A stretch of 64,000 nt of DNA, from sequence record PZ166176.1; one strand, written 5' to 3'. Of the stretch, positions 3,830-50,455 are shown one piece after another. The stretch comes from a phage. Below the pieces are notes generated by a model that was not told where the DNA came from, ran no database searches, and saw nothing but the letters and a program-made list of their open reading frames with translations. The first letter of the stretch is position 1, and every line of letters begins with the position of its first letter. The translations under genes and the position numbers were made by a program.

Positions 3830-4102
3830 ACACAACATTAAGAGCACTGTGATTGATCGTCGTATCCTGTGCACAAGGTCTGCTCGAAAGACAGTGTTCT
3901 TAGTATTGTGTTGATCACAAAAAGAGTTACCTGAAACTTGACCGGAGTAGGGTTGGATGGGGCAAAAGAAGAAGCGGCTCTCCCATCGACAGCAACGAAG
4001 AATAATATTTGACTTTGGTTTTGTATTATTTTAAGTTAGCTTACCGAACGTAGGGCTAGTCACCCAATGGGATACTCGTCACTGTCCCGCTCAATAAAAC
4101 TA

Positions 4103-4132
4103 TTGACAACCAATAGTAAAATGTAGTATAGT
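4103..4132 (+). promoter_or_regulatory. sigma70-like promoter (-35 TTGACA, 18-nt spacer, -10 TATAGT) with inverted repeat ACTATTG...CAATAGT
   Basis: Good match in both hexamers; lies upstream of tRNA-Gly and restarts transcription inside the tRNA region. Confidence 0.55.
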
Positions 4133-4143
4133 AAAGATGTAGG

Positions 4144-4217
4144 GCGTTCTTGGTGTAGCGGTAGCATTCCGTCCTTCCAAGTCGGCGGCACGAGTTCGAT
4201 CCTCGTAGAACGCTCCA
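4144..4217 (+). tRNA. tRNA-Gly (anticodon TCC), CCA encoded
   Basis: Acceptor GCGTTCT/AGAACGC (perfect), anticodon loop CTTCCAA, T-stem ACGAG/CTCGT with loop TTCGATC, discriminator T, CCA. Confidence 0.75.
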
Positions 4218-4315
4218 AATTATTTAATAAAGGGTTGCCAGAAAACTTTCTCTTTTACTCATGGTTTTCTCCTTCTCTCACACCTCTTCTGGTTGCCCTT
4301 CATTAAATGATTTAT

Positions 4316-4391
4316 TGGTTTGTAGTGTAGTCCGGTAGCACACGACACTTTGACTGTCGTAGGTTTGGTTCAAATCCAGACAGACCAGCCA
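4316..4391 (+). tRNA. tRNA-Gln (anticodon TTG), CCA encoded
   Basis: Acceptor TGGTTTG/CAGACCA, D-stem GTGT/ACAC region, anticodon stem CGACA/TGTCG with loop CTTTGAC, T-stem TTTGG/CCAGA with loop TTCAAAT, discriminator G, CCA. Confidence 0.75.
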
Positions 4392-4396
4392 TATAA

Positions 4397-4473
4397 CGGA
4401 ATTTAGCTCAGTTTGGTAGAGCATACGCTTTGGGAGCGTAGGGTCGCAGGTTCGAATCCTGCAATTCCGACCA
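4397..4473 (+). tRNA. tRNA-Pro (anticodon TGG), CCA encoded
   Basis: Acceptor CGGAATT/AATTCCG (perfect), anticodon stem TACGC/GCGTA with loop TTTGGGA, T-stem GCAGG/CCTGC with loop TTCGAAT, discriminator A, CCA. Confidence 0.85.
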
Positions 4474-4479
4474 ATCAAA

Positions 4480-4553
4480 TGTTTCGTAGTTCAATGGTAG
4501 AACCCACGACTGATAATCGTGAGACACAAGTTCGATTCTTGTCGAAACAACCA
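4480..4553 (+). tRNA. tRNA-Ile (anticodon GAT), CCA encoded
   Basis: Acceptor TGTTTCG/CGAAACA, D-stem GTTC/GAAC, anticodon stem CACGA/TCGTG with loop CTGATAA, T-stem ACAAG/CTTGT with loop TTCGATT, discriminator A, CCA. Confidence 0.85.
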
Positions 4554-4555
4554 GT

Positions 4556-4625
4556 TTCCCGTTAGACTTACAGGATAAGAGTTCCACAGCTTATTGTGAT
4601 GTTGGTTCGAATCCAGCACGGGATA
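4556..4625 (+). pseudogene. degenerate tRNA-like element (no CCA, irregular anticodon arm)
   Basis: T-arm GTTGG-TTCGAAT-CCAGC and an acceptor pairing with a 1:72 mismatch are present, but the anticodon region gives only a 4-bp stem with a 6-nt loop and ACA replaces CCA. Confidence 0.3.
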
Positions 4626-4631
4626 CATAAT

Positions 4632-4710
4632 AGCGGGATAGAGGAGTCTGGTCGTCCTCGCCAGTTTCATATGCTGGAGATCATCGGTTCAAATCCGATT
4701 CCCGCCTCCA
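4632..4710 (+). tRNA. tRNA with anticodon CAT and an A1:C72 mismatch (second Met/Ile2-type tRNA), CCA encoded
   Basis: Acceptor AGCGGGA/TCCCGCC, D-stem GAGG/CCTC with an 11-nt loop, anticodon stem CCAGT/GCTGG with loop TTCATAT, T-stem ATCGG/CCGAT with loop TTCAAAT, discriminator T, CCA. Confidence 0.65.
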
Positions 4711-4825
4711 AATATCGCTTGCCAGCGGTATCTTTGAAGACCTTGCCTGGTTCCTTCTAAGATGGAGGGGTGCGACTCCTTAACGCACAATTATAATAAA
4801 GCATTTCAAATTAACAGTATTTATT

Positions 4826-4848
4826 AGCCTCCTTATTGGAGGCTTTTT
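4826..4848 (+). terminator. rho-independent terminator after the tRNA cluster
   Basis: Hairpin AGCCTCC-TTATT-GGAGGCT followed by TTTT. Confidence 0.75.
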
Positions 4849-4867
4849 GCTATCTATTGAATAAAAC

Positions 4868-4896
4868 TTGACTTATTATTTTTTATATGTTAAGAT
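4868..4896 (+). promoter_or_regulatory. sigma70-like promoter (-35 TTGACT, 17-nt spacer, -10 TAAGAT)
   Basis: Hexamers read directly; followed by AGGAGG and the ATG at 4918. Confidence 0.5.
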
Positions 4897-4917
4897 AAAG
4901 TTTAGGAGGATTTTATT

Positions 4918-5214
4918 ATGCCTAAACTAAAACGTGGTCGTGGAAGACCAACAGCCGAAATGCAACAGATCTACGCAATGGATGCGGCGCAAGCAAGTGT
5001 AAAAGAATTATTTGCAGAGCATTATTTAGAAGCTATGCGATATATTGTTGAACTTGTTAATGATAAGGATGCAGCAAAACCTCTCCGCTTCCAAGCAGCT
5101 AAAGCTATTAAAGAGCAAGTAGAAGAATGGTTAGAAGAACATTATGAAGCTATGGAAGAAGAAACCCCTGCCGTGCAGAATACAGATGACGTTCCTAAAA
5201 AGATCGTAATCTAA
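4918..5214 (+). CDS. hypothetical protein with AT-hook-like KRGRGRP motif (98 aa); small terminase subunit possible
   Basis: Strong RBS; own promoter and two downstream terminators; N-terminal PKLKRGRGRPT motif suggests DNA binding; lies upstream of the large terminase. Confidence 0.5.
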   Translation: MPKLKRGRGRPTAEMQQIYAMDAAQASVKELFAEHYLEAMRYIVELVNDKDAAKPLRFQAAKAIKEQVEEWLEEHYEAMEEETPAVQNTDDVPKKIVI

Positions 5215-41347: not shown

Positions 41348-44020
41348 ATGTTTCCAATTCCAATATTTACTATTATGACCAGCACTGGTGTCGTTCCTCT
41401 GCCAGCAGGTATTGTTAAAAAAGTAATTACTTTAGATTACCCAGATAATGCTGGTAATTCTAACAGCAGTTTAGCAATTTTGCTTAATGATGGTAGATTG
41501 TTTACTCAAGGCGCAAACCTCTTTGGTGAGATTGCAGATGGAACTCGTAGTGCACGATTCAATAATTTCCACTTAGCTTCTACTGTAGTAGCGGATGTGT
41601 TTACCGCAGATCGTTGTTTTGTTATTAAAACTAACAGTGGGGGATGGCAATATTCAGGATTGACAGCAGGGTTAGTAGGATCTATAGCAGCAGGTGGTAC
41701 GGATGCATGTGTAACTACTTGGACCAGCTTTCCATCTGTAATAACAGGGACTATCTCTTTAGCCAATCTTAAAGAGGTTAAGGGAGGATATAACAACACT
41801 CTCTGGTTAATGAATAGTGGTGTTCTTTATGGATCGGGTCAAAACACAGTAGGTAGTTTAGGTGCAAGCACTACTAACGAAGTTTCTACTCCTCGTCAGA
41901 TAACAAGTTCAGCAGTTGCTTTTGATGCAGGTTACAACCAATGCTCTTATGTCAACAATGTGGGAACCTTGCGTGTTTGTGGAGCTAGTAAAGGTTTAGC
42001 AGGTAATAATAACACAACAACAGCTTTTGTCAATGCCAAGATATCCGCTACTGAAACAGTGTATGTCAAAGATTACATCAATACAGTTTCCCAGACAATA
42101 GTTGTAGGAGATACCTCCGGTGGCACGGGTACAGTAAACTACTTATATGTCAGGTCTAATACAGAAACAACCTACACTAAACTGGATACCTTTGCAGCAG
42201 GTTTCTCAACATGGAAATTTCCACCAAGCCGCCACTCTTTTTTCGTTGGGATCAACAATTCCTTGTGGGCTATTGGTAAGAACTACACTGCAAACTTAGG
42301 TTTGGGGTATGATTCTGCGAGCGGAGATCCACTCCAAGTGGGAAAACCAGTTAAACCTGAAGGAGTGGGTTCTTGGGATATAAACAAGCTCACAAGCGTT
42401 CATACGCTGAATATGGATATTACTAACCAATTAGGTTATCAAGGAACCTTTTTCGTTTATAACGGGGATATGTATTATTCCGGTATTTGGAAAGATGGGA
42501 AAGCCTCGTATCTGTTCAACAGTGGTCTAAATTATAATAAATTCACACCGATAGCAAGCTCTGTGATTACGGGTGATATTCTGGCAACTGGTTTAACTAC
42601 AGATTCTTTAGGAATTTGTATTGTAGGTGGAACTAAACAGTTGACACATTCTGTTAGCCCAGAAGGAGGTAAACTTTTCAATATTAAATACACTTCTTCT
42701 GCCCCTGCAAACATGACAATATCATCCACTGGTTTAATGACTTTCCATGCAGAAGGTGGTTTTGATGCAGGTATGACAGCCTTAAACGCTGAAGGAACAA
42801 CTTTATCAGATACCTCTGGAGGATATGCTTCAACATTGAGTGTTTACACCCCTAGCTTATCTGCGATGGATGTAGGAACAACACAAACAATGGTAGCAGA
42901 AATAACGCCAACAGGAGCAGCAAGCTTACCTGGTATGGTTGTTGAGTATACAACTACAGATCCTAATGTTGCTACAGTAGATCCTACAACTGGTGTAATA
43001 ACTGGTGTTGGTGATGGTGGTTGTAGAATTGGTTGCACAGCTACGTATCAAGGTGTTGTTACCGCTTCTGATAGTTCTTATTTAACGGTGAACGCTGTTG
43101 CGGGAAAGGAGTTAGCTCCATCTCCGAGTAGTAGTTTAACGGTTCTAAACGGATATTTCAACCACTCGGCAGATGGGGCAATTACGTTCCCAATTTTATC
43201 GGGTACTGTCACACCAGCTAACTTTGTAGTTAAGGTGGATGACGTTGTAATACCTTCAAATAAAGTAATATTTAGAAATAAAGCTTTCTCTACAGTGGAT
43301 AGTTATCCAGCAGGAGAATATAGACTGGCTATTGAATTTGCAAGTGCTTCAGTAGTGAATAGTGTTGATGTGTCTATGGAAGCAAATCCAGATCTTTTAG
43401 AATTATGGGGCGGCAACAGAATTGGTTATTCTACAAGCCCAGCCTCACAATTCTTAAAAGGTTGTGCTAACTTAAGACGAATAACTTCTGATTGTTTTAG
43501 TAACACATCTTACACCGGAACATCTATAAGTGGTATCTTCTCTGGCTGTACAAGTTTGACAGCTATCCCTGAAGGATTATTCAGTGATGCTTTATTTCCT
43601 TCAATGACAACAATGTCAAGCACGTTTGAAGGTTGTACATCTTTAACATCTATTCCTTCAGATTTATTTAAGAATCTATCAAAAGTTACAAGATATTCTT
43701 ACACCTTTAAAGATTGCACCTCTCTTGCAGAAGTTCCAGCAGGAATGTTTGATAATATTCCAACGAAAGTGACCTCTTTAACAGCTACATTCCAAGGTTG
43801 TTTAGCACTTACAGATTTTAATAAAATCTTTAATGACAACCCAGGGTTAACGGTTTGTGGTCAACGTGGAGCATTATCTTCTTTCTTTAGTGGATGCACA
43901 AATCTTACAGGAACAGGAGTAACATTAACAAGCACATTAGGTGGAGCAGCTAATAGTTACCTATTCAGGTATTGCACAAAACTTTCTGATTATAACAATA
44001 TTCCTTCGGGTTATAAATAA
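41348..44020 (+). CDS. tail fibre / adhesin with Ig-like domain and C-terminal leucine-rich repeats (890 aa)
   Basis: Ig-like segment (TTTDPNVATVDPTTGVITGVGDGG) and repeated CTSLTxIPxxLF units resembling BspA-type leucine-rich repeats. Confidence 0.5.
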   Translation: MFPIPIFTIMTSTGVVPLPAGIVKKVITLDYPDNAGNSNSSLAILLNDGRLFTQGANLFGEIADGTRSARFNNFHLASTVVADVFTADRCFVIKTNSGGWQYSGLTAGLVGSIAAGGTDACVTTWTSFPSVITGTISLANLKEVKGGYNNTLWLMNSGVLYGSGQNTVGSLGASTTNEVSTPRQITSSAVAFDAGYNQCSYVNNVGTLRVCGASKGLAGNNNTTTAFVNAKISATETVYVKDYINTVSQTIVVGDTSGGTGTVNYLYVRSNTETTYTKLDTFAAGFSTWKFPPSRHSFFVGINNSLWAIGKNYTANLGLGYDSASGDPLQVGKPVKPEGVGSWDINKLTSVHTLNMDITNQLGYQGTFFVYNGDMYYSGIWKDGKASYLFNSGLNYNKFTPIASSVITGDILATGLTTDSLGICIVGGTKQLTHSVSPEGGKLFNIKYTSSAPANMTISSTGLMTFHAEGGFDAGMTALNAEGTTLSDTSGGYASTLSVYTPSLSAMDVGTTQTMVAEITPTGAASLPGMVVEYTTTDPNVATVDPTTGVITGVGDGGCRIGCTATYQGVVTASDSSYLTVNAVAGKELAPSPSSSLTVLNGYFNHSADGAITFPILSGTVTPANFVVKVDDVVIPSNKVIFRNKAFSTVDSYPAGEYRLAIEFASASVVNSVDVSMEANPDLLELWGGNRIGYSTSPASQFLKGCANLRRITSDCFSNTSYTGTSISGIFSGCTSLTAIPEGLFSDALFPSMTTMSSTFEGCTSLTSIPSDLFKNLSKVTRYSYTFKDCTSLAEVPAGMFDNIPTKVTSLTATFQGCLALTDFNKIFNDNPGLTVCGQRGALSSFFSGCTNLTGTGVTLTSTLGGAANSYLFRYCTKLSDYNNIPSGYK

Positions 44021-44022
44021 GA

Positions 44023-44052
44023 AAAGGAGCCAAATGGCTCCTTTCTTTTATT
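44023..44052. terminator. bidirectional rho-independent terminator between the convergent plus and minus modules
   Basis: Hairpin AAAAGGAGCC-AAAT-GGCTCCTTT with A-run upstream and T-run downstream, so a U tract follows the stem on either strand. Confidence 0.8.
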
Positions 44053-44542
44053 CAGCGTTCAACCCTTCCCCATGTTCTTGATGCCAAGCTTCATGGTGCA
44101 GAGGACACAGCCATAGAACATCTAACGGTTTATCATAATCACAATGATGAGCATGAACATCAACAGACCCACACACTTGGCAAGGTTGTTTTACTAACTT
44201 TCCATCTCGGAGTGCGTTACCTACAGCTATATGAGCAGAACGTTTTTTCGGATTCTTTTCGATGTAACGTTTCTTAGCTTCATTAGCCTTATCTTTACCT
44301 TTCCCTTTTGCGTAAGCCTCTTTCAAAGCTTTGCGCTCTGGGGTCTGATCTCTGCTTTTATCATACTCTTTGTAATATTCAGATTTATCTTTACGATTCT
44401 GTTTAACATCTTTCTTATTACATTCCTTGCATTTATTGACGTGACCGTCAGCCATAGCTTTATGTTTGTAAAATTCAGTGAGGGGCTTTAACACCCCACA
44501 CTTGAAACAAACCTTAGAAGCAATGCAGGAAGTTTCGACCAT
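44048..44542 (-). CDS. HNH homing endonuclease (free-standing)
   Basis: C-terminal HNH signature (VHAHHCDYDKPLDVLWLCPLHHEAWH) and upstream Cys cluster (CFKCG...CKEC); start placed at the Met of MVETSC; the longer track ORF to 44740 is out of context. Confidence 0.6.
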   Translation of the reverse strand: MVETSCIASKVCFKCGVLKPLTEFYKHKAMADGHVNKCKECNKKDVKQNRKDKSEYYKEYDKSRDQTPERKALKEAYAKGKGKDKANEAKKRYIEKNPKKRSAHIAVGNALRDGKLVKQPCQVCGSVDVHAHHCDYDKPLDVLWLCPLHHEAWHQEHGEGLNAE

Positions 44543-45446
44543 ATTGCAGTCCAATAGGGGCAAATGGAATATCATCATCGAAGTCCATTGGAGGTTCTTC
44601 TTGATTACTTGGAGTTGGTTCTGGTTGTGGTTCAGGCTTCTTAACTTCTTTCTTCTCTTCTTTCTTAGGTTGTTCTGCGGAACCACGGATGGCAGCAGCA
44701 ACTTTATCAGACAGAGCCAGAACTTTACGAGCAGAGTCAATCAGATCTTCTACAGATACAGTCTTAATGGTATGGTCTTTACAAGCATTGAGGATAGCGT
44801 GACCAACAGATGCCCCAAGATCATAATCATTAATATCAACGCCACGAGATTCAGCAATTTCCGATTTCAGTGTGACAGTTGCAGATTGAACAACCCCAGC
44901 GATATCGAAAGCATCGCCTTTAACACCATTACGAATCAGTTCCAGTGCACCATTTACTGCGTGACCAGTTTCCAGACCTACAGTATCACGTTTTTTATAG
45001 GATTGCTTAGGAGCAGCATCGTTGGAACCTTTATTGCCAGAAGATTTGTTAGACTTCTGAACACCATCGGTAGACAATACTGTAATACGAGATTTTTTAG
45101 TATTGTAGTAAGTTTTACCGCCTTTATTATCAACGCGATCAATATCAATACTTACTTCTACACCTTTTTCAATAGTGATCCAATTATCACCTTCTTTGAC
45201 TTGCAGGTTTTCATAACCTTCTTTCAGTTCAATGTCACCAAGAGAAATCCAAACACCTTTCTCATCTGGTTTAGCACCTTTCTCTTTCAGAACAAGAGAA
45301 GCTCGGTGAGTTGAAACAATCGTTTTTCCTTCCCAATGAAAAGTTTTAGGTTCAGCGAATTTATCCAGTTTAACGTAGTCTACGATACCAGTTGCATAAG
45401 TTACGGTTTTGCCTTTACGATCAGTTTCAGTATTAATTACGGACAT
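44514..45446 (-). CDS. ssb: single-stranded DNA-binding protein with internal DFDDDIPF acidic tip and a 15-aa C-terminal extension
   Basis: Sequence PPMDFDDDIPF matches the conserved SSB C-terminal tip, preceded by a Gly/Ser/Asn/Lys-rich linker; the ORF continues APIGLQYGRNFLHCF past the usual end. Confidence 0.6.
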   Translation of the reverse strand: MSVINTETDRKGKTVTYATGIVDYVKLDKFAEPKTFHWEGKTIVSTHRASLVLKEKGAKPDEKGVWISLGDIELKEGYENLQVKEGDNWITIEKGVEVSIDIDRVDNKGGKTYYNTKKSRITVLSTDGVQKSNKSSGNKGSNDAAPKQSYKKRDTVGLETGHAVNGALELIRNGVKGDAFDIAGVVQSATVTLKSEIAESRGVDINDYDLGASVGHAILNACKDHTIKTVSVEDLIDSARKVLALSDKVAAAIRGSAEQPKKEEKKEVKKPEPQPEPTPSNQEEPPMDFDDDIPFAPIGLQYGRNFLHCF

Positions 45447-45900: not shown

Positions 45901-46494
45901 TTACCAAGGAATATCATCTTCTTCCAATCTGGCATCTACTTTAGGTGGACGTGGAACCTTAACCTCTTTCACAAAACGAAGATATGGGAAACGTGTAGCA
46001 ATTTTAATAACATGTTTGGCATCTTCTCTAACATCTTTGTGCAAGAAGCAGATCCCTGTTTCCAAGGTTGTTTCAAAATCTTTAGAATAATAACAGTCCT
46101 TCCCATCAAATGCAGCCTGGCAGATGGACAGATCGAACTCATTTAGAAAGGTTGTCATTACGCTTGGTTCCATAATCATAAGGTTGCAAAGCTGACCATC
46201 ACGTTCAAACTCAAAAACGTGTTTAAGACCAGTAACACCTTCATAATTGTCAGAAGCCTCTTTGTTTCCTAGTTTACGAATATTGGTTCCCATTAAAGCA
46301 GATGCAATTAATCCTTGTATTTGTTCTTCAGTCTGATGTGCAGGAAGGGATGTATAGAAATCCAGATCACGTCCAGCAATATCAAGAATACGCCAATCAC
46401 GAACAGCACCGCCAGCCAAGACAGAATTAGGATCAGCGATCTTTAATACGGTAAGAATCTCTTTGGCAATATTGATTTGTTTTGATTTAGTCAT
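45901..46494 (-). CDS. nucleotidyltransferase with CCA-adding-enzyme-like head motif and SSB-tail-like C-terminus
   Basis: LAGGAVRDWRILDIAGRDLDF matches the GGAVRD...DxD signature of tRNA nucleotidyltransferase / poly(A) polymerase head domains; C-terminus EEDDIPW resembles the SSB tip. Confidence 0.5.
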   Translation of the reverse strand: MTKSKQINIAKEILTVLKIADPNSVLAGGAVRDWRILDIAGRDLDFYTSLPAHQTEEQIQGLIASALMGTNIRKLGNKEASDNYEGVTGLKHVFEFERDGQLCNLMIMEPSVMTTFLNEFDLSICQAAFDGKDCYYSKDFETTLETGICFLHKDVREDAKHVIKIATRFPYLRFVKEVKVPRPPKVDARLEEDDIPW

Positions 46495-47122: not shown

Positions 47123-50100
47123 CTAGTGACAGGACGCCCAGGAATTACCCACATCATACCCAGCAGTAAGCTGAACATTAAGATTGTAAAATTCTCCAGC
47201 CTTAGTAACAGCTAAAGCAGCAAGTTCACCTGCCCGACTATAAGCTGTAAACCATCCACCTTTGGGAGATTCATGAATGTTAGCCCAAATTTGCCCTGTC
47301 TCTTTTTCCTTATTATGCTTCCATTCTTCGACTTTAGCAAGGCATTCTTTATCAATTTTCTTTTGTTCTTCAGGATCGTCTACTTTCTTCCAACCTAATG
47401 ATTCAGGTGAAAACCATTTAAATTCTACAAGGTTACGAGAAACTTCAAGCTGGGCTTCATCGTGATATGCAATCATTTGTTGCACGAAATCTTTATTCTT
47501 CCAGTCATCTTTAAAGAAGTCAACACTTAGCCCTTCTTCTTCGATCATGTCATCATAAATAACCATTGCACGTTTAGCACAGATAACCCCACCGCTTTGG
47601 AACAGAGAGTTAAGAATCGCGTGAGCAGAACGAGTAGGAACCTTACGACCGTCAATACCCAAAACATATTGTTTACCAGTCTTAACCCAGAAATCGTTTA
47701 AACGTTCTTTAAGACGCGCCAATGGGAATGCAGCTTCCCAGAAAGCATCGAACACCAATTGCCCTGTAAACTTGTCGCTACCAATTGTTTTAGCAACCTT
47801 GTCGGCTTGTGCACCATAGGTAATACCATACTTAACAGATTTAGCAGGACTACGTTCAAATTTACGTCCAATAGTTTCAGTGATACGTTTTGCCATCATT
47901 GTGTGAACATCATTAGGTTTCTCTAACAACAGAGCGTTACAATATTCGTGTGGCTCCGGCTCGTACCGCCAACAGTTTCCTGTGATGGTAATGCAGTCTT
48001 TCTGACGCATGACCCACGTACCAAGTTCTGTTTGTGGACACCAAACATCCTCTACACCCCACTCTTCAATAGTCAAACTTTGAACAGGAATGTGAGAGCG
48101 GTTAGTCAATGTTGCCACTTTTACTTTCTGCTCTTTTGTATTGAAAGCTACAGAGATATTGCCTCCATGCACCAGGTACGAGGCAGTTAAAGCTGCTTCA
48201 AAAAGTTCACCTGGGTTCTGCGCCCAACGCCAAACAGGTTTTTGTTTATGTTCGTGCCAGTAACCATCTGCAATCAAGAAACCTTCCAAGAAAGCTACAC
48301 GCTCGGCATGAGACATATTAACTACACGTTCTACCCACGGAACATCCCATTTACCTTGTTGAACAGAAGTTAAACTATTTACCTGATCTTGTTCCATGTT
48401 AAATGGAGCATTACAAATAATGTTATCTCCTGTGCAAAGCTCGGCAGTTGTTCTGACTTTAGGCACATAAGTATTCCCTTTACTACGGGTATTAACATAC
48501 CAACGGTGATCTGCTGTTGCACGGTAAGTGTGTGATTTCCCTTTAATCTCAAACGTCTTACTATTTTTATAGAAGACCTTACCTTTTACTTTAGTCCATT
48601 CTTTCAGACCTGTTTCAGCATTGTACCCTAAAATCTCATCCCCTTCCTTCAGGTCGTGATATCCTACCCAACCTTTACGAGTCAAAGCTTGAGCATCCAT
48701 CGGCACACAGTAATGCGATTCAATTTTTGCTTCCAAAGAGTCGAAGTCGTAGCCAATCTGGAAGTATTTAGGAACTTCTACACCAAACAAGTTACGCATC
48801 TCCCATCCAAACAAAGATGTGACACGAGGAATATTAGCTACAGATCTATGCTTCATACGAGAGGTTGCAGCATCACATGTAGCGGCTGGGGTAGGAATAC
48901 GCCCATCCGCCCTTACTGCGGCTAAGAAACCTTTATCGTATTCTTGATCTTCTTCATCTTCTTCCCAATCGGCACCGCCACCTAAAATAGAGTTCCTACG
49001 ATGCTTATACGTTAAGTATTCTACAATCTGTGTAGCATAAGGAAACTTCTCACCCAAAGCTTGCAGGTTAGGACAAATTTCTTTTTCCTGACCTTTGGTA
49101 AAACACGGGTTAGTCAATACTTTAAGACCGCGACCTTTACCTTTTGCTATACGCTCTTGAATCTTCCTTTCCAGGGTTTCCGGTGTGCACTCCAGATGAT
49201 CACAACGATCCTGACAAAAATTAGAAGATAGGGTTTGCTCAACGTAAGCTCGAATACCTTTCTGAAGTTCTTCCTCGCTCTTTTTAATTTTGGTGCCAGA
49301 TTTAAGCGTCAAGTCTTTATCTTTATATTCAGACGGTACCCAACCTAATCCTACGAGCCAGTTTTTAATATGGGTTGTATCGTTCAATGTTGCAGGGATG
49401 TTAGGATCACATAGAGGCTCATCTGCTGCAACTGGTAGTTTCCACTCTTTCCCCAACATAACTAACCACCAATCGCCATCCCTCTCTTCCAAATGACCAT
49501 CATGTTTCTTAGCAAAATTGATCATATGGTTAGTTGGCTCTAAGTTCTTTTTAATTTGCAACTTAGGTGGAATAAAAGCCTTAAGATAACCTTTTGTTGC
49601 TGGTTTAGGTGGCAAAATAGGCTCAACGAGTAAACGAAGACGCTCCATTTCTGCATCCAAAAAAGCAAGGTTCTCTTCTGCTTGCTTCATGTTAAAAGCA
49701 AACCCACGGTGTTCCTGGCGTGTAATAATGTCTGCTACACGTTGTTCAAGTTCAAACGGACCTTCCCATTTATCATAATCACCCCATTCTTCCATAAGGT
49801 AATTATATACGCTCGTATTGGCTTTGTTGTCATAGATACAGTAATAAAGCATGTCCGCAGCAAAAGTCTTAAATCGATCCTCTTCTGGAATCTCTTTACG
49901 GAAATCTATTTTTACATCACCACCTGCCTTTCGAGAAAGTGCTGCCAAACTATGTCCTGATTTGCCCTCAATCTTTCGATCTGGGTTTAACACTTTACTC
50001 AAAATCAAGGAGTCAATAAGTTTTACCTTATTTTTGCCCCACGTGTTATATTTAACACTGTAATCTAAGCCATAAAACAGTTTTGTAGCCAACCAGTCGT

Positions 50101-50455
50101 AGTTGATACCGTTGTGAGCCACAGCCATTTCAACCAGATATTCAGGCTTATCTTTAAAATAACCTTCATGATTAATAAAGTCTGGGAAATCTTTTAGTTG
50201 AAAATGTGTGTAATCTTGCGCCACATACTCTTTAAGAACATATGTGTATTTGCCATCTGACTCTTCATAAGGACGCCCATCAAAGATGTATTTAGGACCA
50301 TCGTGGAAAGCTACTATTTCTCCTGTTTCATGGTTCTCTAAGACAATACAGTGCATTTGAAATGTGTCTTTGAGACGATAAGGACTAGCTAAATAATCAA
50401 TAGTGTCATTATTCAACAATCCGTTTGCTTCAATATCCCATGTAAACTTACTCAC
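47123..50455 (-). CDS. family A DNA polymerase with 3'-5' exonuclease domain, interrupted by an intein
   Basis: Exo motif DIEANGL; motif A region GYDFDSLEAKIESHY; motif B ERSPAKSVKYGITYG; motif C HDEAQLEV; a 245-aa insertion separates motifs A and B. Confidence 0.85.
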   Translation of the reverse strand: MSKFTWDIEANGLLNNDTIDYLASPYRLKDTFQMHCIVLENHETGEIVAFHDGPKYIFDGRPYEESDGKYTYVLKEYVAQDYTHFQLKDFPDFINHEGYFKDKPEYLVEMAVAHNGINYDWLATKLFYGLDYSVKYNTWGKNKVKLIDSLILSKVLNPDRKIEGKSGHSLAALSRKAGGDVKIDFRKEIPEEDRFKTFAADMLYYCIYDNKANTSVYNYLMEEWGDYDKWEGPFELEQRVADIITRQEHRGFAFNMKQAEENLAFLDAEMERLRLLVEPILPPKPATKGYLKAFIPPKLQIKKNLEPTNHMINFAKKHDGHLEERDGDWWLVMLGKEWKLPVAADEPLCDPNIPATLNDTTHIKNWLVGLGWVPSEYKDKDLTLKSGTKIKKSEEELQKGIRAYVEQTLSSNFCQDRCDHLECTPETLERKIQERIAKGKGRGLKVLTNPCFTKGQEKEICPNLQALGEKFPYATQIVEYLTYKHRRNSILGGGADWEEDEEDQEYDKGFLAAVRADGRIPTPAATCDAATSRMKHRSVANIPRVTSLFGWEMRNLFGVEVPKYFQIGYDFDSLEAKIESHYCVPMDAQALTRKGWVGYHDLKEGDEILGYNAETGLKEWTKVKGKVFYKNSKTFEIKGKSHTYRATADHRWYVNTRSKGNTYVPKVRTTAELCTGDNIICNAPFNMEQDQVNSLTSVQQGKWDVPWVERVVNMSHAERVAFLEGFLIADGYWHEHKQKPVWRWAQNPGELFEAALTASYLVHGGNISVAFNTKEQKVKVATLTNRSHIPVQSLTIEEWGVEDVWCPQTELGTWVMRQKDCITITGNCWRYEPEPHEYCNALLLEKPNDVHTMMAKRITETIGRKFERSPAKSVKYGITYGAQADKVAKTIGSDKFTGQLVFDAFWEAAFPLARLKERLNDFWVKTGKQYVLGIDGRKVPTRSAHAILNSLFQSGGVICAKRAMVIYDDMIEEEGLSVDFFKDDWKNKDFVQQMIAYHDEAQLEVSRNLVEFKWFSPESLGWKKVDDPEEQKKIDKECLAKVEEWKHNKEKETGQIWANIHESPKGGWFTAYSRAGELAALAVTKAGEFYNLNVQLTAGYDVGNSWASCH
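47975..48709 (-). mobile_element. intein (about 245 aa) with LAGLIDADG-like motif, inserted after polymerase motif A
   Basis: Starts CVPMDAQALTRKGW, contains ERVAFLEGFLIADGYW, ends ...DCITITGN followed by Cys; the termini resemble those of the terminase intein. Confidence 0.6.

Follow-up and report, generated by a model that had tools for sequence, protein, structure and literature searches.

A conserved peptide beyond the acidic tip of a phage SSB-like protein occurs apart from the neighbouring HNH endonuclease gene and may mask or retarget the tip

The window analysed here is a stretch of 64,000 nt from sequence record PZ166176.1, and all positions refer to it unless a locus is named. It comes from a Phapecoctavirus, a myovirus of the phAPEC8/ESCO5 type with phage Mt1B1_P17 as its best DNA match (98.5% identity), and it carries on its minus strand a gene for a protein resembling single-stranded DNA-binding proteins (SSBs), followed by a gene for an HNH endonuclease. 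The initial annotation had remarked that the acidic motif DFDDDIPF, which normally ends bacterial-type SSBs, is internal here and that the frame runs 15 codons further. Translation of the open reading frame (ORF) 44514..45446 (-) bears this out: the 310-aa product terminates ...EEPPMDFDDDIPF-APIGLQYGRNFLHCF-TAA, the tip Phe is not its last residue, and 15 codons (44517-44561) lie between the tip and the stop. The overlap that had been described between this extension and the start of the endonuclease gene (44048-44542) was likewise found, the two ORFs sharing 29 nt from ATG 44542 onwards (44514-44542), with the last nine extension codons within the HNH reading frame. The locus has the following features:

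44514..45446, minus strand: SSB-like gene, 310 aa, PHROG 4477 family, homologue of the DRT10 trigger Bas52_0087
44562-44585, minus strand: DFDDDIPF tip, internal, residues 288-295, preceded by PPM
44517-44561, minus strand: post-tip extension APIGLQYGRNFLHCF, residues 296-310, 15 codons, a conserved C-terminal module
44514-44516, minus strand: stop codon of the SSB-like gene
44048..44542, minus strand: free-standing HNH (beta-beta-alpha-Me) endonuclease gene, 164 aa, in the +1 frame, stop at 44048-44050
44022..44045, no strand assigned: bidirectional terminator hairpin between the SSB/HNH unit and a convergent tail-protein gene

The terminator hairpin is common to all alleles of the locus and is kept in phages ESCO5, DE16 and nepoznato.

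To explain the extension, the initial annotation had supposed that insertion of the endonuclease gene displaced the native stop codon, which would make the extra codons read-through into endonuclease DNA. This account fails, because the same peptide is found where no endonuclease follows, an observation that had been named at the outset as refuting it. A homology search listed 120 best homologues (identity down to ~31%), 28 of which carry a related extension after IPF, all others ending exactly at [IVLC]PF. Examples of these extensions are APIGLQYGRNFLHCF, APIGLPYGRNFIHCI, APVGLQYARHAISALYA, SPLGLQYPNHSMYALYA, APIGLQYGRSRIYAL and APIGLQYRELLNAM; every tail with an extension keeps the residues P, F, G, L and Y, and the window allele is also present in a protein cluster of 110 members (P0001). 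Loci L005-L007 encode a 66%-identical SSB with the identical 15-aa extension, followed by a terminator and then a methyltransferase gene, and tblastn detected no HNH trace downstream of this SSB. At L008 and L012 an extension-type SSB gene runs straight into a terminator and a convergent gene, again without HNH. Other loci do have an endonuclease after an extension-type SSB: a homologue of the window enzyme (hereafter HNH-A) at L009 and L013, and genes with the same N-terminal zinc-knuckle module and another C-terminal part at L011 and L015. At all four of these, the endonuclease gene starts inside or just after the last extension codons.

We defined the module as P-F-[AS]-[PS]-[IVLM]-G-L-[QP]-Y after the tip, then 7-10 residues ending in an aromatic residue or His, a small residue and a hydrophobic one, and then a stop; the window tail fits as PF-APIGLQY-GRNFLHCF, and the length of the extension is fixed at 14-17 aa. 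When IMG/VR was searched with a degenerate DNA pattern for D-[IV]-P-F-A-P-[IVM]-G-L-[QP]-Y, 94 loci with the module were found, 90 of them without HNH and four with HNH downstream. In 93 of the 94 the reading frame closes 7-9 codons past the Tyr, and the last one is cut by the end of its contig; an E. coli-type OB core is present in 79. The extension exists independently of the endonuclease on a large scale.

The pattern of substitutions bears on whether the peptide itself is maintained. For eight loci ascertained by whole-protein homology, we calculated non-synonymous (pN) and synonymous (pS) change per site over seven core extension codons and obtained pS = 0.80 and pN = 0.088 in the SSB frame (pN/pS = 0.11), with which a larger set agrees, and pN/pS of 0.92 and 3.0 in the two shifted frames. 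Between the window and L005 there are six differences in the 45 nt, all synonymous in the SSB frame; three of the six lie within the overlap with the HNH frame, and all three are amino-acid-changing in that frame. The 'QYPxLL' subgroup has a clear third-position periodicity in the codons after the Tyr, which lie outside the search pattern. These comparisons show protein-level purifying selection on the extension, in the SSB frame only.

The module is portable as well as conserved. A tail profile built from a 43-aa alignment picked it up in Proteus, Providencia, Salmonella, E. coli and Klebsiella, on fragments of canonical SSBs rich in Gly and Gln, and the two such loci that we viewed in context both lie in prophage recombination modules. 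Among bacteria, 14 species representatives match the DNA pattern, including Providencia, Proteus, Moellerella, Vibrio (on a plasmid), Pseudoalteromonas, Oceanisphaera and Glaciecola, and the matches are full-length SSBs wherever the ORF is complete. A tblastn search with tip plus extension matched 722 phage records, at least 154 of them including the extension (query coverage of at least 80%), among them HK75, mEp235, mEpX2, epsilon34, g341c, CP-1639, PVP-SE1, SSE121, GAP31, Mydo, KB57 and Vibrio phages. When 1.84 billion cluster representatives were searched exhaustively with a profile, the module turned up only at extreme C-termini, of proteins of 50-480 aa. The cores that bear it are PHROG 4477, 32668/2544, 9002 and 3284 as well as canonical SSB, and in these data its carriers are restricted to phages, prophages and one plasmid. 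The module is an alternative C-terminus on many SSBs of Gammaproteobacteria phages, prophages and plasmids, carried by several unrelated DNA-binding cores.

Two groups of carriers resemble the window protein in having tip plus module at the extreme C-terminus: the lambdoid/P22-like SSBs of HK75, mEp235, mEpX2, epsilon34 and g341c, and the SSBs of Vequintavirinae relatives (PVP-SE1, SSE121, GAP31, Mydo and KB57). Examples of their modules are APIGLPYPRHAIYVI and APIGLPYGRNFIHCI. They differ from it in having mostly canonical OB-fold cores and no HNH downstream. No study of their post-tip extension was found in the searched literature, and neither the motif strings nor post-tip extensions in general were found in that literature, which omits most subscription-journal papers; the HK620 SSB paper concerns a different tail, NDYPPF. 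The tail module on many phage SSBs is, apparently, undescribed so far. As a separate observation, an extension-bearing canonical SSB of a Proteus prophage (L016, 3695-4231) is split into ORFs of 82 and 76 aa lying 57 nt apart, which points either to a pseudogene or to an error of assembly; a DUF3799 gene lies beside it in a recombination module, with an integrase further downstream.

The window protein is itself an unusual bearer of such a tail. It matches PHROG 4477, a family annotated 'unknown function', over its whole length (E 3.4e-97), and a whole-protein homology search gave 237 homologues, with full-length homology to that family. A Pfam search found no match of the protein to PF00436, the SSB OB-domain; NCBIfam PRK09010 reaches 22.7 bits against a cut-off of 260, over tail residues 254-295 only, and PHROG SSB families likewise match the tail only. 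An AlphaFold2 model (mean predicted local distance difference test, pLDDT, 80.9) divides it as follows:

45072..45446, minus strand: N-terminal beta domain with a predicted OB-like fold, residues 1-125
44688..44981, minus strand: four-helix domain, residues 156-253, the best conserved part of the family
44586..44687, minus strand: disordered Lys/Glu/Pro-rich linker, residues 254-287, pLDDT 45-67, without secondary structure

Residues 133-149 are disordered in the model, the helices of the four-helix domain (156-172, 179-201, 208-223 and 232-253) have pLDDT >90, and the tail including the extension is predicted to be disordered. The conserved motifs of the four-helix domain are ETGHAVNGALEL and LGASVGHAILNAC. 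As in a canonical SSB, the acidic tip D-F-D-D-D-I-P-F (residues 288-295) follows a disordered linker; two other defining features are absent, in that PF00436 is not matched and the tip is not terminal. The gene belongs to the replication module and has a family A DNA polymerase gene (Pol A, 47123-50455) upstream of it, an arrangement also present in L005, L009, L013 and Bas52. Sequence and setting together leave the identity as an SSB-like replication protein well supported, although the 'SSB' label is less secure than it appears, the PHROG and NCBIfam SSB matches covering the tail only.

Set beside the C-terminal interaction hub of E. coli SSB, the window protein has the same octapeptide DFDDDIPF as the E. 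coli tip (...MDFDDDIPF-COOH), placed behind a disordered linker that follows a predicted OB-like domain; it differs in that the tip is internal and followed by 15 conserved residues, that PF00436 is not matched and that a four-helix domain is added. A closer relative is Bas52_0087 of Escherichia phage RudolfGeigy (a Vequintavirus), described in a preprint as the SSB-like trigger of the DRT10 reverse-transcriptase defence, which is linked to SbcB/ExoI (bioRxiv 10.64898/2026.04.29.721553). Its beta and helical domains are homologous to those of the window protein (33-34% identity, BLASTP E 1e-15), and it shares the tip motif and the position downstream of polymerase genes. In contrast to the window protein, it has 408 aa and ends exactly ...SFDDDIPF-stop, followed by a terminator, and the preprint authors predict two OB folds in it (bioRxiv 10.64898/2026.04.29.721553). 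The searched passages of that preprint do not mention the extension, and according to them, within the PHROG 4477-like family, DRT10 triggering or interference with SbcB was shown experimentally only for Bas52_0087 (bioRxiv 10.64898/2026.04.29.721553).

Within Phapecoctavirus, genomes ~98% identical could be compared allele by allele, and a query spanning the junction gave a census of 73 records. The comparison with relatives lacking the endonuclease, which had been suggested at the outset, shows that ESCO5 and phAPEC8 stop directly after IPF: the ESCO5 allele reads CCG TTC TGA, that is IPF-stop, without an endonuclease. In nepoznato, IPF-TGA is followed by a second endonuclease gene type, HNH-B, whose TTG start overlaps the stop, while the window and Mt1B1_P17 carry the extension plus HNH-A. 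The DE16 allele has the extension intact, and a deletion of ~430 bp has left HNH-A with ~17 nt at either end, the 5' piece lying after the SSB stop. In the census, extension plus HNH-A is found in four phages (Mt1B1_P17, ZCKP1, nieznany and the 82%-identical PsgM04F), extension plus scar in five (DE16, 536P1, DIJ07P2, ECO340P2 and vB_Ec-G1) and IPF-stop in all remaining listed records, phAPEC8 included. A sublineage at 80% identity again has both types of cassette (PsgM04F vs phiWec190).

The locus is therefore polymorphic for extension plus HNH-A, IPF-stop plus HNH-B and decayed derivatives of both. Phage dw-ec (L115, OL739525) has an HNH 3'-end remnant of ~40 nt beside an IPF-stop allele; on the strength of this remnant, even the common 'empty' allele may have arisen by decay of an HNH-B cassette. 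The ESCO5-type sequence 'TTC TGA TCT TAT TGA TTT ATA A' gives 11/19 matches to the extension with one indel, and the dw-ec record suggests that this allele is a decayed HNH-B cassette rather than a decayed extension. Separately, at ~1870-1900 of L115 a run of ~17 G then 6 C falls exactly at the junction of SSB and HNH remnant and is probably an assembly artefact. The allele series shows the typical life cycle of a homing-type endonuclease gene, and the presence/absence polymorphism of the HNH gene is in itself ordinary.

What the module might do can be approached from E. coli SSB, whose acidic tip, according to work on that protein, functions only as a free C-terminus. Addition of one C-terminal Gly to this protein left no detectable affinity for chi, and the variant complemented poorly, because the carboxylate of Phe177 is part of the chi interface (PMC3045619). 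The tip Phe of the window protein has no free alpha-carboxylate, which host SSB partners need, so the module most likely masks or retargets the tail. We consider it probable that the extension is a conserved, selected tail module acting in this way and with an existence of its own apart from the HNH gene. It would prevent canonical docking of the tip, and the phage protein would no longer engage chi, ExoI and similar partners canonically; the tail would then be either a masked tip or a composite motif of greater length, whose new nonpolar C-terminus would serve a different partner. Such a putative partner would probably be encoded by the host, given that phage genomes near-identical in other respects alternate between the two alleles. 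The HNH gene, for its part, would be parked immediately 3' of the SSB ORF, borrowing the ATG of the conserved Tyr-Gly codons of the extension. Since no phage of the genus has the extension without HNH-A or its scar, the window allele probably entered with the HNH-A cassette, through recombination anchored in the conserved tip-coding DNA.

It is possible, if somewhat doubtful, that the module is an unrecognised short linear motif specific to mobile elements (IPF cap, Pro-x-Gly-Leu-x-Tyr and nonpolar end) that reprograms the SSB interaction hub. If so, it could keep phage SSBs from feeding phage single-stranded DNA (ssDNA) to host enzymes recruited by SSB, such as ExoI, help to evade defences that sense tip-dependent interference (DRT10/SbcB), recruit one specific host factor or serve as a pro-peptide, and the switching between capped and uncapped alleles in near-identical phages would be an arms-race polymorphism. 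The module was also compared by eye with the beta-clamp-binding motif (QL[SD]LF) and the PIP box; its spacing differs from theirs, and the commonest variant has Pro in place of the Gln.

Several points weigh against masking or retargeting by a selected module. This step draws on one published mutant, SSB plus Gly tested against chi, and on general knowledge of the pockets that bind the SSB C-terminus. The DFDDDIPF tip is as conserved in the extended alleles as in the IPF-terminal ones, which is unexpected if the tip is simply disabled and which fits proteolytic unmasking or a longer composite motif equally well; it is compatible with two alternatives, one being proteolytic unmasking or a degron and the other frequent switching by recombination. 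Since phages are viable with either allele, the module is not essential. Within Phapecoctavirus the extension always occurs with HNH-A or its scar (nine phages), and because it is never found there without one or the other, a hitch-hiking component is real in this genus. Finally, in the APIGLPYPRHAIYVI subgroup, the largest prophage group (38 loci within L019-L112, for example L021 and L036), the 45 nt and the following 'TAACCAAAGGATATAACCATG', which is the ribosome-binding site and ATG of the next gene, are ~100% identical, synonymous sites included; both flanks are 52-70% identical and the downstream genes unrelated. For this subgroup only, the near-identity indicates recent spread or a DNA-level role and not long-term protein selection. 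In these prophages, which include some from Proteus and Providencia, the APIGLPYPRHAIYVI tail belongs to a mosaic junction or linker with sharp boundaries; part of its spread is therefore recent and recombinational.

These last observations would be accounted for if tip plus extension were a selfish hitch-hiker, a recombination linker or homing footprint spread by gene conversion at the conserved sequence encoding the tip, tolerated but with no benefit to the SSB. The strict tie in Phapecoctavirus and the uniform APIGLPYPRHAIYVI tract are in keeping with such spread, and at L009, L011, L013 and L015 the HNH-type genes begin within or a few bases past the last extension codons. Between groups, however, synonymous sites are saturated and the peptide pattern is kept, where a neutral tail would be expected to vary in length and sequence; moreover, the HNH family is not SSB-specific, and the great majority of the IMG/VR loci (90/94) have no HNH. 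We regard this explanation as unlikely.

Rather less likely still is that the extension is a pro-peptide or degron, whose nonpolar C-terminus (..YVI, ..HCF, ..YAL, ..LYA) directs the protein to host proteases, so that trimming exposes IPF-COOH or the SSB is short-lived. Nonpolar C-termini are classic degradation signals in E. coli, as in the ssrA tag, and Parsell, Silber and Sauer reportedly described them as such in 1990. The perfectly conserved tip upstream of the extension, the almost invariable aromatic/His, small and hydrophobic nature of the last three residues and the predicted disorder of the tail are all in keeping with this explanation. Against it, no protease site is known at IPF/AP, and the invariant Pro-x-Gly-Leu-x-Tyr core would be superfluous for a simple C-terminal degron.

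Meaningless read-through into DNA of an endonuclease gene whose insertion removed the native stop appears very improbable. It would explain why HNH-less relatives stop right after IPF, why the extension is linked to HNH-A or its scar across the genus and why the last nine codons overlap the HNH frame. It does not explain the identical or related peptides without HNH at L005-L007, L008, L012 and 90 of the 94 IMG/VR loci, the constant length of 14-17 aa, the pN/pS of 0.11 with saturated pS in the SSB frame only, or the differences between the window and L005 that are non-synonymous in the HNH frame. Thus, of the connection first proposed between extension and endonuclease, the link itself stands within the genus, in that the extension is tied to HNH-A or its scar, and the displacement of the stop does not. 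A sequencing, assembly or frameshift error, also raised at the outset and favoured by the unusual position of the motif and nothing else, has practically no chance of being correct, given that the same allele occurs in the nine independently sequenced phages of the census and in the 110-member cluster. Two frameshifting scenarios were considered in addition. A hidden early stop was rejected, as the +1 and -1 frames have no nearby stop after IPF, the +1 frame there being the HNH frame, which is open back to 44740; an SSB-HNH fusion is conceivable and unsupported.

If a selected module does alter the host partners of phage SSBs, this would bear on how phage ssDNA is protected and processed, on the triggering or evasion of SSB-sensing defences such as DRT10 and retrons, and on the variable transfer of recombineering SSB/annealase pairs between hosts. 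The 154 of 722 tail-matching phage records with the module amount to a rough one in five, well-known laboratory phages included. ESCO5-type and DE16-type Phapecoctaviruses are near-isogenic natural pairs in which the question is directly testable. For annotation, the extension should not be taken for a frameshift, and in Mt1B1_P17, the one RefSeq record examined, the HNH start is probably called too far downstream.

The endonuclease itself matches PHROG 2340 'endonuclease' (1.5e-48), with an alignment from residue 9 of the 164-aa protein, and has at least 999 homologues. Pfam HNH models and NCBIfam gave no match to it, and a PDB sequence search returned noise only. Invariant in the family alignment (A6) are Cys12, Cys15, Cys38, Cys41, Cys121, Cys124, Cys146, His132, His133, His150 and His154, which fall into two parts:

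44420..44518, minus strand: N-terminal zinc-knuckle module (C12, C15, C38, C41)
44072..44182, minus strand: beta-beta-alpha-Me catalytic core, residues 121-157, CxxC...HH...C..H...H

In its AlphaFold2 model (pLDDT 94.7) strands 130-133 and 142-145 are followed by helix 147-157, and the best fold matches of this C-terminal beta-beta-alpha unit are Hpy99I (probability 0.95), Cap5 HNH and T5 SciA, with weak E-values of 0.45-0.8. On this evidence from sequence and model we accept the protein as an HNH-type nuclease. No in-frame start except ATG 44542 preserves the C12/C15 pair, which is invariant in the family, and the PsgM04F annotation likewise has this 164-aa product with a 29-nt overlap. In the Mt1B1_P17 RefSeq record (L001, 2646-3053), the endonuclease is called from an internal Met as a 135-aa product that lacks the invariant first Cys pair, the start being probably placed too far downstream. 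The start ATG forms part of T-ATG-G in the conserved Tyr-Gly codons of the extension, which is also present at loci without HNH. Dedication of the HNH family to SSB 3' ends was considered and rejected: the family is scattered over 352 phage records and matches under varied genes (AAA ATPase, 5'-3' exonuclease, baseplate wedge protein).

The enzyme is like free-standing HNH homing endonucleases in its beta-beta-alpha-Me core with Zn-binding cysteines, in its intergenic position with a start overlapping the upstream gene and in the coexistence of intact, variant and decayed copies at one locus, polymorphic among near-identical genomes. It is unlike them in that its start codon falls within a coding motif that is conserved in the gene next to it and in having no Pfam HNH match. 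By sequence and polymorphism we infer a homing-type enzyme, with putative cleavage specificity and homing.

Its relatives at other loci are varied. The endonuclease genes at L011 (3780-4394) and L015 (3414-3761) encode the same module as the window HNH, C-x-KCG...DGHLNKCKEC, with a C-terminal part common to both; the L015 copy, of 115 aa, is short and is followed downstream by another partial match, and L011 also has a Cas12f1-like TNB-domain ORF at 4762-5085. At L013 (3671-4213) the HNH homologue itself ends ...VIPEIKIPF-stop, a C-terminus like an SSB tip. L005-L007 have an N6/N4 DNA methyltransferase gene and a 143-aa ORF (4009-5128) between the SSB terminator and the tail gene, and the slot between SSB and tail gene, occupied by the HNH gene in the window, appears to be a general insertion hot spot. 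The convergent tail protein of the window (41348-44020, plus strand, 890 aa) has an RCC1-like beta-propeller match below the Pfam cut-off, a Big_2 domain and a repetitive C-terminal part.

Two further genes of the replication region deserve mention. The family A DNA polymerase (47123-50455, minus strand) has 1110 aa vs 829-864 aa for its homologues in L005, L009 and L013, and Pfam matches it as Pol A over residues 845-1009 only; the additional ~250 aa (roughly ...HYC|VPMDAQALT... to ...TITGN|CWRY...) look like an intein, and the Bas52 polymerase is annotated as a two-piece join. A 197-aa gene at 45901-46494 (minus strand), annotated nucleotidyltransferase in relatives, could be an anti-defence (anti-Gabija-like) gene; a local Pfam search found no match to it, the precomputed annotation PF26128 (Gad2) is faint in its L009 homologue, and the homologues in L005-L007 carry it.

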